DNA of 24,717 nucleotides from Candidatus Hodarchaeota archaeon (GTDB taxonomy: Archaea > Asgardarchaeota > Heimdallarchaeia > Hodarchaeales > Hodarchaeaceae). The position numbers were made by a program, and so were the translations under genes. Under the pieces are notes generated by a model. It did not search any database. It was not told the origin of the DNA and was given only the letters and a program-made list of their open reading frames with translations. Where the stretch lies: contig JAEOTQ010000222.1 in NCBI GenBank assembly GCA_016839785.1, forward strand, positions 1-24,717, in the 5' to 3' direction. Position 1 is the first letter of the stretch; each line of letters begins with the position of its first letter. Below are positions 20,573 through 23,418 of the stretch, in pieces.

Positions 20573-22468
20573 GTGATACTGAAATCTAGAAAGATATCGG
20601 ATGGATTAAAATTGGAACTGGATATAGATGGATGCAAGGTTGTCCTTTTGGATTTTTTTCAGAAAAAAAAATCTATTCTTCTTAAAGCGTTTAAGTCTAC
20701 AGAAGTTAAAACGTTTCTTGAACCATTAAGCGATATTACAATAATATTTTCAGATATAAAAAAGTCTACTGATTTAAAGGATTATCTCATATCCCTTACT
20801 ATTCCAGAAGAGCATTTAAAAGAAATTTTACAATTTTTTGATCGTCCGTTTCAATCTTCATTTTCTTGGGGATTCCAGGATAAAGAATTCGTCTTCATTC
20901 GTTTAGAAGAGAGCACTAAGCTCTTTCTAAAGAAGAATCGGAAAGGTTTGATTGGATTAGTTGTTCATGAGATTTTACACGGTGTACAACGTCAACGGGG
21001 TCTGGAAATTCGTTTACACGATTCATTGGATTTCAGTTTAGATTTTTTCACCCAATTAGCGGAGGTAATACCTCCAGAGAAATATGATCGAACGCAAATT
21101 ATATCATTTCTAAAAAAGATTTCTCAGATTGCCTTATTCGCGTTGAAAGACATATTTGTTAATGTTGAAATGATAAAACGCGGATTTGCAGAGTGGTTGA
21201 TAATTTTCTATCGCGATGAATTAGGATTTGGGGAAGATCTTGATATTAAACCCCCCCAGTATGAAACTGAGTTTCATAAAGGGGTGATAATGGTAAAGGA
21301 TCTGGATTCATTTGCCGAAGCATTTACCTATACACTCTCCCTTATCCCAATTTGGCTCCCATTCATGGTACTTGAAACTGACTCCAAGGACTATGAGACC
21401 TCCCGTGAATTAAAGCATTTTATTTTTAATAGGTATTATATTAATCCTTCATTTATTACTCGGGAGATGTGGCACATAGAAAATTTATTTTTAGCCAACT
21501 TCTCATTTTCTAAGAGTTTCCATCGGAAGTGGTATGGTGCGGTCTTTAATCTGACTCTTGAATATTTACTCGGTGAAGATTTTCTGTTTTATCACCTCTT
21601 CAAAGCCACTGAACTCTTAGAAGAGCTTTATATTGGCCCGGAAACTGAAGAAAGAAAATCTCTGGCAATGGTTCCAATTTTGAAAGCCACTTACGTTTAC
21701 AGACGTGATAAGCTTATTGGAATACAGAAAAGGAATATTGATGAACTTGACGCAAAAATGCTCCAGTATGAAATTGGGAAGGAAGAGCTTTCTGAGCTCG
21801 AAGAAAGTATTGATCAGTCATTGGAGCATTCAACTTCTCCCGCACATATGTTTGAAAACCTCATGAAGTTATCTATCATGATTATAACACGAGATCTCAG
21901 AGAAAATGTATTTTCTGGTGAGGATTTCAAATTTAAGGTCTTTAGTCGTACAATCCTCTCTCTCCTGCAGGCAATAAATTACTTGGGGGATCAGTGTGAT
22001 AATAAGTATTATCATGAGGTCCGTTTAGGTGTGAAAAGACTTCTTCGAACAGATAATCTGTTTAAACGTAAGAGATGGGCTCTCCTCCTTGAGAATTTTG
22101 CTCAAAATACGATTTTACGAGGAGAAACTGAACCTTTGCAGGTTGAAATCGATGAATTAGTTTATAACTATGACTTCTTCGAAATTCCGTTAACGAATTT
22201 CTTTATAGACCTAGGAGTGTCTTTCATTCAGAACATTAAGACAGTAATGAAAACAGTTCCAATAAACGATGATGAATTCCCATTCTTGACAGCTCAGCTA
22301 ATCAATATGCAACTAGGAGGGCTTCAACTTCCAAGCGAGGATGAGGAGCACTTGAACCTCATGTTTGTAAGCAGTCTTATTGCAACAAAAGGGATTCCAT
22401 ATGTGATGATCCAGAAAATGCTGACGGCGTTTTTACAAACCAAGGTCCCAAAGGAGGAATCAGAATAG
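20573..22468 (+). CDS. Hypothetical helical protein with a zincin-like HExxH motif (putative metallopeptidase)
   Basis: LVVHEILHGVQR (20966-20980) and a downstream helix ALKDIFVNVEMIKRG with a candidate third ligand Asp; no signal peptide. Confidence 0.7.
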   Translation: MILKSRKISDGLKLELDIDGCKVVLLDFFQKKKSILLKAFKSTEVKTFLEPLSDITIIFSDIKKSTDLKDYLISLTIPEEHLKEILQFFDRPFQSSFSWGFQDKEFVFIRLEESTKLFLKKNRKGLIGLVVHEILHGVQRQRGLEIRLHDSLDFSLDFFTQLAEVIPPEKYDRTQIISFLKKISQIALFALKDIFVNVEMIKRGFAEWLIIFYRDELGFGEDLDIKPPQYETEFHKGVIMVKDLDSFAEAFTYTLSLIPIWLPFMVLETDSKDYETSRELKHFIFNRYYINPSFITREMWHIENLFLANFSFSKSFHRKWYGAVFNLTLEYLLGEDFLFYHLFKATELLEELYIGPETEERKSLAMVPILKATYVYRRDKLIGIQKRNIDELDAKMLQYEIGKEELSELEESIDQSLEHSTSPAHMFENLMKLSIMIITRDLRENVFSGEDFKFKVFSRTILSLLQAINYLGDQCDNKYYHEVRLGVKRLLRTDNLFKRKRWALLLENFAQNTILRGETEPLQVEIDELVYNYDFFEIPLTNFFIDLGVSFIQNIKTVMKTVPINDDEFPFLTAQLINMQLGGLQLPSEDEEHLNLMFVSSLIATKGIPYVMIQKMLTAFLQTKVPKEESE

Positions 22469-22506
22469 CTAGATTCGACATCAAACAAGAAAAGGATCTT
22501 TATTTG

Positions 22507-22513
22507 AAAAAAA
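22507..22513 (-). terminator. Oligo-T archaeal terminator after tRNA-Asn
   Basis: A7 on the plus strand (T7 on the minus strand), 5 nt downstream of the discriminator base. Confidence 0.55.
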
Positions 22514-22518
22514 GGGAA

Positions 22519-22685
22519 CGGCACCAGCAGGAGTTTCAGTCAAAAACGCTATGTTTTTAACACTTGAACCTGCGACCACTCGGTGTCTGTGTCTCTTTCA
22601 CAGTGAAAGATACCAATTAACAGCCGAACGCTCTACCTCTTCAGAGATAAAGATTGATTCTTTATCCTAACTGAGCTATGATGCC
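22519..22685 (-). tRNA. trnN: tRNA-Asn(GTT) with three introns: D-loop 17/17a (22639-22668, 30 nt), anticodon 37/38 (22585-22617, 33 nt), T-loop 59/60 (22533-22562, 30 nt)
   Basis: Removing the introns gives a 74-nt cloverleaf: GGCATCA TA GCTC AGTTAGGTA GAGC G TTCGG CTGTTAA CCGAG TGGTC GCAGG TTCAAGT CCTGC TGGTGCC G. G73 fits Asn and CCA is not encoded. Each junction has a 4-bp central helix (TCAG/CTGA, CTGT/ACAG, TTCA/TGAA) with BHB or relaxed-BHB bulges. Confidence 0.93.
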
Positions 22686-22701
22686 TTTTTTATTAAGAAT
22701 G

Positions 22702-22807
22702 TGGGCCTGGGGGGATTTGAACCCACGAACCATCCGGTTATGAGCCGGACGCTCTAACCATTTCAGAGGGTAAAGACGTTATACGTCCTAGACTGAGCTA
22801 CAGGCCC
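22702..22807 (-). tRNA. trnI: tRNA with CAT anticodon, most likely tRNA-Ile2 (agmatidine type), with a 30-nt D-loop intron (22761-22790)
   Basis: Spliced form: GGGCCTG TA GCTC AGTCTGGTTA GAGC G TCCGG CTCATAA CCGGA TGGTTC GTGGG TTCAAAT CCCCC CAGGCCC A. G1-C72 and the lack of the three G-C anticodon-stem pairs exclude initiator Met, and the GGGCC acceptor is Ile-like. Intron junction helix is TCAG/CTGA. Confidence 0.88.
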
Positions 22808-22836
22808 AATAGATGTTATAGTGTTGTGTTACTTTA

Positions 22837-22844
22837 TTATTTAA
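22837..22844 (-). promoter_or_regulatory. TATA box for the tRNA-Ile2/tRNA-Asn transcript
   Basis: TTAAATAA on the minus strand, 30-37 nt upstream of the mature 5' end at 22807. Confidence 0.55.
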
Positions 22845-22866
22845 GTGATTTCAGATCCTCTGATAT

Positions 22867-23418
22867 TTATGTATTTATGACGTATAAACCATCTTGGAAG
22901 ACAGTTGGATCTTTACTTCTTCGTCCTCGCAATCTTGATGATTCTGCCAAGCGTGCAGCAGCTTGCGAAACCATTTCTTTGTTAATTCCAGTTAGAGTCA
23001 CAATTTCACCTTTAACTTTGATATCGACTGATGGATCAAACGGAACTTTTATGGGATCCCTTCTTCCATATAAATTCTTAATGAGAACGACTGATTTTTG
23101 TACTTCTACCGTAGCAGGAAAGTGAGAAGTGATAATTTGCACCTGATAGGTATATAACTCTTGTACACCTTTGATCATGTTATTCAAATGACCTGTAATG
23201 GTTCCTACCATAGATGCTTCCTTTTTTTTCCCAAAGTGACTACTTATGACGAATTTGTTATCCTCCAATACCATATTGATACTCAGTCTGGTAAAGGATT
23301 TCTCGATATTGCCTTTAGGGCCTTCTATCTTAACTGTATATCCACCACGAATTTGTTTCATATCAACTTTGATATTGTTAGGGATTTCAACTGTTTTCTC
23401 AATAGCATAGTGCGTCAT
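22867..23418 (-). CDS. rpl6: 50S ribosomal protein uL6 (archaeal L6P)
   Basis: VKIEGPKGNIEKSF, GTITGHLNNMIKGV, SHFP, IKNLYG, GINKEMVSQAAARL, KDPTVFQDGLYV. Confidence 0.97.
   Translation of the reverse strand: MTHYAIEKTVEIPNNIKVDMKQIRGGYTVKIEGPKGNIEKSFTRLSINMVLEDNKFVISSHFGKKKEASMVGTITGHLNNMIKGVQELYTYQVQIITSHFPATVEVQKSVVLIKNLYGRRDPIKVPFDPSVDIKVKGEIVTLTGINKEMVSQAAARLAESSRLRGRRSKDPTVFQDGLYVINT

Follow-up and report, generated by a model that had tools for sequence, protein, structure and literature searches.

Transfer RNA genes interrupted by several introns have been described in some Asgard archaea. According to the accessible text of Valentin-Alvarado et al. 2024 (PMC11291895), 92-95% of the tRNA genes of Atabeyarchaeia and Freyarchaeia contain introns, and over half contain several. 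A preprint by Goswami et al. (bioRxiv 10.64898/2026.10.13.758758, October 2026) covers 90 Asgard genomes and, in the part available, describes genes with as many as five inserts, inserts in the D-arm that tRNAscan-SE overlooks, strong motifs in the T-arm and gains that occurred repeatedly, and gives several Heimdallarchaeia less than one insert per gene; its main text contains no occurrence of Hodarchaeales or tRNA-Asn. The tRNA-Asn(GTT) gene described here resembles these published cases, as far as their accessible text goes, in its several short BHB-type introns at D-arm, 37/38 and T-arm sites, in a D-arm insert missed by annotators, in a strong canonical T-arm motif, in the presence of two EndA paralogues and in intron variation among close relatives. 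The published cases centre on Atabeyarchaeia and on Freyr- and Jordiarchaeaceae, with 2.2 inserts per gene, whereas the present genome is of the Hodarchaeales type with about one intron per tRNA locus, and a single gene is found with every count from zero to three introns. An earlier note on this DNA held triple-intron tRNAs to be best known from Thermoproteales, a statement which these Asgard publications have made outdated. Heavily interrupted Asgard tRNA genes are already in print, and the present tRNA-Asn adds one more case.

In the Thermoproteales, up to three BHB introns per tRNA occur at non-canonical positions together with an (alpha-beta)2 EndA that has a crenarchaeal specificity loop, and their multi-intron tRNA genes were reportedly described by Sugahara et al. 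in 2008 and Fujishima et al. in 2010. These organisms are hyperthermophilic Thermoproteota, whereas the gene studied here lies in an Asgard genome of 35% G+C and has introns of about 30 nt at three fixed sites. BHB-EndA machinery also joins the pieces of split and permuted tRNA genes (Nanoarchaeum; the tri-split genes of Caldivirga), and it would likewise serve the present locus; a split or permuted gene was nevertheless rejected here, as all four exons follow one another in order on a single strand, inside 167 nt. In the available part of Hirata et al. 2011 (PMC3241643), A. pernix pre-tRNA-Thr is a further case with a D-loop BHB intron, cut by the A. pernix EndA. The catalytic subunits of both organisms have the specificity loop and a lysine at the position of K44. 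The A. pernix precursor contains one intron, whose cleavage was demonstrated biochemically, whereas three introns are predicted here from the sequence.

The window, as the whole analysed stretch of 24,717 nucleotides is called below, belongs to a MAG of 4.04 Mb in 248 contigs that is 84.5% complete with 3.4% contamination. Its ribosomal protein L6 shares 84-86% identity with records of Candidatus Heimdallarchaeota B3_Heim and of Hodarchaeota, and the host reads as a Hodarchaeales/Heimdallarchaeia-type Asgard archaeon, from the Asgard lineage that is commonly regarded as closest to eukaryotes. The GTDB order of the host holds 24 species genomes, 22 of which, the host included, fall in one genus.

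Architecture and splicing motifs of the tRNA-Asn gene

The tRNA-Asn(GTT) gene occupies 22519..22685 on the minus strand, as do all of its parts, and spans 167 nt including the discriminator G; CCA is not encoded. Exon 1 (22669..22685, 17 nt) holds the 5' acceptor strand, positions 8-9, the 5' strand of the D-stem and the start of the D-loop, and is followed by intron 1 within the D-loop (22639..22668, 30 nt). Exon 2 (22618..22638, 21 nt) begins with the remaining D-arm and position 26 and continues with the 5' strand of the anticodon stem and with positions 32-37 of the loop, which include the anticodon GTT, up to intron 2 (22585..22617, 33 nt) at the canonical 37/38 site. Exon 3 (22563..22584, 22 nt) runs from position 38 through the 3' strand of the anticodon stem and the variable loop to the 5' strand of the T-stem and T-loop positions 54-59. 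Intron 3 (22533..22562, 30 nt) then interrupts the T-loop at 59/60, and exon 4 (22519..22532, 14 nt) supplies T-loop position 60, the 3' strands of the T-stem and acceptor stem, and the discriminator G. Introns account for 93 nt in total (30 + 33 + 30) and exons for 74 nt (17 + 21 + 22 + 14).

When the introns are removed in silico by coordinate, ARAGORN calls the product as tRNA-Asn(gtt) of 74 bases with a normal cloverleaf and a score of 122.6. The acceptor stem has 7 bp including one G-U pair, the D-stem halves are GCTC and GAGC, the anticodon stem flanks CTGTTA, and the T-stem halves are GCAGG and CCTGC. Features expected of a tRNA-Asn(GUU) cloverleaf, namely U8, A14, U33, purine 37, G18-G19 and the T-loop TTCRA, all appear in the ARAGORN drawing, together with a 7-nt anticodon loop and the anticodon GUU. 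Furthermore, the spliced product matches the sequence of intron-less orthologues, save for a few compensated stem changes.

The gene is one of a tRNA pair located just downstream of ribosomal proteins S8 and L6. Its upstream neighbour, 16 nt away, is a tRNA(CAT) of the elongator Met or Ile2 type (22702..22807, minus strand), which the Rfam model matches at 53.7 bits with a 37-nt D-loop insert and which reaches a score of 122.7 in the census described below once 30 nt after nucleotide 17 are removed. This D-loop intron of tRNA(CAT) (22761..22790, minus strand, 30 nt) has the same site and exon tetramer as intron 1 of tRNA-Asn. A common origin of the two was considered from their shared AGG start, CTCTGAA end and 30-nt length, but homology was not accepted, since pairing constrains these features and the middle block common to both introns is lost in orthologues. 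In relatives, tRNA(CAT) has 0, 1 or 2 introns. A run of seven T, read directly from the sequence, lies 5 nt past the tRNA-Asn discriminator (22507..22513, minus strand) and is likely to be the archaeal oligo-T terminator of the pair. Because the spacing between the two tRNAs is only 16 nt and contains no T-run, they probably form one transcript with four introns. On the other side of the pair, a 631-aa ORF on the plus strand (20573-22468) has an HExxH motif and no Pfam family. Its protein shows 48-85% identity among relatives. Of the 19 loci that have the ORF, 17 carry it beside the tRNA pair; in two loci (L009 and L010) it lies upstream of the ribosomal genes.

Each insert was tested for a BHB motif in the sole register that yields the mature sequence, with a 4-bp central helix and two 3-nt bulges, each cut after its second base. 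Flanking helices were scored as outer on the exon side and inner on the intron side, where they adjoin the central helix, and a strict call required at least 2 bp on each side. In each of the three tRNA-Asn introns the central helix is paired 4/4 and the 3-nt bulges lie in register. The T-loop motif is strict and consists of the 5-bp T stem, TTCA/TGAA paired 4/4, the 3-nt bulges and a 9-bp intron helix. In the D-loop motif, TCAG at positions 12-15 pairs with CTGA near the 3' end of the intron, and a 9-bp intron helix is present; its outer helix on the exon side is just 1 bp, and the motif is therefore classed as relaxed. The anticodon motif pairs CTGT with ACAG 4/4, stacked on the anticodon stem, with an exon-side helix of 7 and a 3' bulge of 3 nt. 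Its 5' bulge is larger and the intron-side helix is 0, so that this motif is also relaxed, since no intron helix abuts the 5' bulge. When the intron interiors were shuffled, the observed motif was matched in 1/2000 cases for the D-loop, 58/2000 for the anticodon and 2/2000 for the T-loop intron. In addition, the precursor folds at -61.5 kcal/mol compared with -40.3 +/- 3.8 for 200 dinucleotide shuffles (z = -5.55).

In its unspliced form the gene escapes standard finders. ARAGORN run on the genomic DNA, with and without -i, does not call tRNA-Asn, and the Rfam tRNA model matches it neither at the gathering score nor with the limit relaxed to E<=10, whether for the whole genome or for a stretch of 401 nt; the only Rfam match on the window is the neighbouring tRNA(CAT). 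At the gathering threshold, only 1 of 9 three-intron orthologues is found by Rfam. The earlier note, which had described a tRNA-Asn(GTT) with three introns, one per loop, gave exact coordinates and the right position for every intron, and its count of 93 intronic nucleotides out of 167 is correct, as is its distinction of a textbook T-loop motif from relaxed D-loop and anticodon motifs. Its well-formed cloverleaf is reproduced by ARAGORN on the in-silico product, and its expectation that standard annotation would likely miss the gene is borne out by the blindness of ARAGORN and Rfam to the unspliced form.

Conservation, splicing enzymes and the predicted route to mature tRNA

The comparison covers 20 loci, the window included, in which tRNA-Asn(GTT) lies downstream of L6 and tRNA(CAT); 19 of them also hold a homologue of the 631-aa ORF. 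At one further locus, L022, the Asn gene was not found. The gene is intron-less, with 74 nt, at two loci (L009, L010), has only the anticodon intron at six (L013, L014, L017, L018, L021, L053) and only the T intron at one (L020), while the anticodon and T introns are combined at L015 and the D and anticodon introns at L019. All three introns are present at nine loci (the window, L005, L006, L007, L008, L011, L012, L016 and L028). Counted by site, the D intron is present in 10/20 orthologues, the anticodon intron in 17/20 and the T intron in 11/20. In the MAFFT alignment the gaps of the shorter genes sit exactly at the predicted splice sites, and exons are near-invariant (exon 1 varies in a single column across the 20 orthologues), whereas introns are variable.

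Despite this variation the motifs are retained. In every one of the 38 introns (10 D, 17 anticodon, 11 T) the central helix is 4/4 and both 3-nt bulges hold the register that gives the sequence of the intron-less orthologues. Standard pairs fill 98.6% of the cells of the tested pairs in the alignment, compared with 29-46% when the partners are slid, and nine pairs change on both sides, compared with 3.3 +/- 1.1 in shuffles (0/500). Compensatory change affects 6 of the 9 pairs of the T-intron helix, and G-U variants of the anticodon central helix still pair among the orthologues. Such constancy of exons combined with paired change in introns is the signature expected of selected, spliced introns and not of decay.

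The genome encodes two EndA homologues, of 182 aa on contig C116 and 215 aa on contig C222. The 182-aa protein matches the catalytic subunit of A. pernix (3p1z_B) at 4.4e-43, and the alignment has no gap across the crenarchaeal specificity loop. K39 of this protein corresponds to K44 of the A. pernix enzyme, and the histidine that differs between 3p1z_B and 3ajv_B is present. The 215-aa protein has valine at the position of the M. jannaschii EndA histidine; its matches, to models of the beta subunit and to the structural repeat at the N-terminus of fused EndAs, are weak. The two paralogues, a predicted catalytic subunit and a beta-like subunit, fit the (alpha-beta)2 type. This type was placed in Asgard archaea by Kaneta et al. 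2018, as far as the available text goes, and two EndA paralogues consistent with it were found in 44/60 genomes according to the accessible part of the Goswami preprint. Hirata et al. 2011 (PMC3241643), in the part available, report that the loop gives the A. pernix EndA its broad specificity, that K44 is needed for cleavage of the D-loop BHB intron, and that together they confer cutting of D-loop and relaxed motifs; the K44A change abolished cleavage of the D-loop intron and also of an intron in the anticodon loop. By homology, then, the genome appears to encode an EndA type able to cut non-canonical and relaxed motifs, and the broad-specificity endonuclease which the earlier note said such a gene would need seems to be at hand, complete with specificity loop and aligned lysine. 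An RtcB-type ligase is represented by two partial matches (C169:3109-3975, profile positions 1-284, and C135:49341-49904, profile positions 245-426), on different contigs; a gene split in two, a gene that contains an intein, or a pair of partial copies would each account for them.

The locus is very probably a functional tRNA-Asn(GUU) gene, the only one detected in the assembly, whose introns would be excised by EndA. Gene architecture, motifs, conservation, covariation and the presence of the enzymes are computational observations; the splicing, co-transcription and step order that we infer would run as follows. The gene would be transcribed together with the upstream tRNA(CAU), with the transcript ending at the T7 run, and each insert in the precursor would fold with adjacent exon sequence into a BHB motif. 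An EndA with (alpha-beta)2 architecture would then cut each 3-nt bulge, making six cuts in all, and an RtcB-type ligase would join the four exons into the 74-nt tRNA, to be finished by RNase P, RNase Z and a CCA-adding enzyme. As intron 1 pairs with D-stem and D-loop nucleotides 12-15, the D stem would form only once this intron is out. The D-loop motif, with its 1-bp outer helix, and the anticodon motif, with its enlarged 5' bulge, would depend on a broad-specificity enzyme. A search of public RNA data listed 11 runs, all in the form of contigs and with shares of 0.05-0.39; four of them, aligned to 22300-23000, covered no part of 22519-22685 and showed no splice joints, the aligned pieces being tRNA(CAT) fragments from other organisms and part of the L6 gene, a result that is neutral with regard to splicing.

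These same two motifs are where an alternative account finds its footing. The gene could be real while not all of its inserts are removed by EndA as drawn, because a site is shifted, another route is used, or splicing is inefficient and yields little mature tRNA. The minimal outer helix of the D-loop motif and the missing intron helix at the 5' bulge of the anticodon motif would both agree with this, as would the fact that the anticodon motif is the least unusual of the three against shuffles, and the accessible text of the Goswami preprint describes many D-arm inserts without canonical motifs. However, the central 4-bp helix and both bulges stay in register in 10/10 D and 17/17 anticodon introns despite sequence change, and the intron-less orthologue is reproduced by these cut sites only. 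The catalytic EndA, furthermore, carries the loop and lysine that in A. pernix permit cleavage of D-loop and relaxed motifs, according to the available part of PMC3241643. Incomplete or displaced excision is accordingly rated as quite unlikely, and excision of all three introns by EndA is retained as the preferred reading.

Interrupted tRNA genes and gene copy number across the genome

Interruption of tRNA genes is widespread in the host. In a SPLITS-like census, long ORFs were masked, leaving 970 kb, and all BHB-like candidates were enumerated; ARAGORN, with canonical introns allowed, was then run on 929 thousand variants that each lacked a single candidate and on 1.69 million variants from which a pair of candidates had been deleted. 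Reversed sequence served as a decoy and gave five matches per level, with maxima of 102.4 and 102.6. The tRNA-Asn gene was recovered blind at a score of 112.6, compared with the decoy maximum of 102.6, with exactly the same three introns. Forty loci scored above 103, and hand curation dropped one that spanned a separator. Of the remaining 39, 13 are uninterrupted, while a single intron is present in 16, two are present in 8 and three in 2, so that about 26/39 are interrupted. These ad hoc counts, which amount to about one intron for each locus, are rough lower bounds, and the anticodon is uncertain for several of the tRNAs. Two more tRNAs (Gln and His) were merged into the clusters of their neighbours. 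One candidate in the window itself, a tRNA(cta) at 1159-1437 on the plus strand, scored 105.4-106.3 after deletion of 76- and 115-nt candidates; it lies in an AT-rich stretch, is just above the decoy ceiling, and was rejected as a false positive.

The two three-intron loci of the census are tRNA-Asn and a probable tRNA-Phe at C235:12622-12816. An intron at T-loop 59/60 is found in seven tRNA genes of the genome, which makes this site an intron hot spot. The six genes other than tRNA-Asn lie at C116:31104-31270, C122:2162-2298, C180:2889-2991, C180:17043-17144, C228:16279-16416 and C235:12622-12816, and each has a 28-36-nt intron that ends in (T/C)GAAAN before the 3' strand of the T-stem. The probable tRNA-Phe gene (195 nt) and the gene at C116:31104-31270 (167 nt) look like further three-intron genes. 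The extensive non-canonical tRNA splicing that the earlier note had proposed for this lineage is supported by both the share of interrupted loci and the recurrence of the T-loop 59/60 intron.

A second tRNA-Asn was not found in the host assembly at any census level, and a blastn-short search of the 4.04-Mb assembly with the intron-less orthologue as query matched only the exons of the known tRNA-Asn. A genome-wide regular expression for GTT anticodon arms gave 233 chance-like matches and was dropped. Three approaches revealed no second Asn gene in the MAG; because of its completeness and contamination values, a copy on unassembled DNA is still conceivable. Similarly, no second tRNA-Asn was found in four of the five three-intron relatives searched. 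The fifth (G004) has a second Met-Asn-631-aa-ORF locus with a two-intron tRNA-Asn (anticodon + T); the contig has a length of 7.3 kb and its first letters already lie within tRNA(CAT) (L065; G004:C105:1-3000). This locus has the same synteny and resembles the allele of another lineage (L015), and for these reasons it probably represents a co-binned relative rather than a paralogue.

These results bear on whether the gene could be a decaying pseudogene with insertions, its role taken by a working tRNA-Asn in the unassembled part of the genome, roughly 15%. The MAG is indeed incomplete and the gene is not called by standard finders, but among the nine orthologues with three introns the exons are identical or nearly so, and the introns differ by changes that include compensatory ones. 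Together with the failure to find a second Asn gene in the host or in most of the relatives searched, and with the many other host tRNAs that are interrupted likewise, this makes decay very improbable. Chimeric joins in assembly or binning, for which the origin of the DNA in a metagenome assembly of 248 contigs could be cited, are an extremely remote explanation of the inserts, as eight other genomes, assembled independently, show this architecture of 166-167 nt as well and the gene lies mid-contig in conserved synteny. A functional, EndA-spliced tRNA-Asn is thus kept as the reading of the locus.

A different tRNA of the genome was noted in passing. At C137:7569-7677 on the plus strand (L066:7569-7677), a Gln-type tRNA with A1:U72 contains a 36-nt intron with a strict BHB at 37/38, and its cut sites give the anticodon CTA (amber) with T at position 37. 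The CTA anticodon with T at position 37 occurs in 6 of the 12 loci compared (the host locus L067 and five relatives, L068-L072), with a compensated stem change, and the orthologue reads CTG in 10 other genomes (the orthologues span L067-L084). TAG is an ordinary stop in the host genome, where 21% of the long open frames end in it and the next stop follows after a median of 12 codons. PylS gave no match above the cut-off in the host genome, and a literature search on CTA-anticodon tRNA found nothing relevant.

Intron states among relatives and what they mean

To place the intron states on a phylogeny, L6, S8 and the 631-aa protein were combined (929 columns, 21 rows) and analysed by careful search in IQ-TREE. 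The three-intron state appears in three separate, well-supported places of the tree, and the minimum number of changes is three for the D intron, one for the anticodon intron and five for the T intron. As the tree is rooted on L022, which has a long branch and only 33% of its columns filled, no direction of gain or loss was drawn. Within one genus-level Hodarchaeales clade, the tRNA-Asn gene occurs in six of the eight possible intron states.

Introns at the same site were also compared between clades. D introns have a mean between-clade identity of 0.73, compared with 0.58 in shuffles, and 22 of 31 pairs exceed the shuffled 95th percentile, pairs being non-independent; for T introns, 15 of 43 equally non-independent pairs do so. 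The T introns of the 11 orthologues are all 30 nt, compared with 28-36 nt in the other T-loop introns of the host. These likenesses raise the possibility that the D- and T-introns of separate clades are homologous and that the mosaic reflects repeated exact loss or exchange of whole alleles, a reading that is tentative and on present evidence rather doubtful. Exact loss could proceed through recombination with reverse-transcribed spliced tRNA. A history of loss or allele exchange would differ from the emphasis of the Goswami preprint of 2026, which in its accessible text stresses repeated independent gain.

The known splicing mechanism is left unchanged by the tRNA-Asn finding. A practical consequence is that too few tRNAs are reported by ARAGORN and the Rfam tRNA model in Hodarchaeales/Heimdallarchaeia, and that a missing tRNA-Asn in such MAGs is a gap in annotation and not biology. 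For the lineage itself, which published surveys call intron-poor, the locus adds a well-supported three-intron tRNA. In addition, the series from zero to three introns in one syntenic orthologous gene provides a compact data set for intron gain and loss, and, if homology of the introns and their loss or exchange were true, it would be a tractable natural series on how archaeal tRNA introns come and go.
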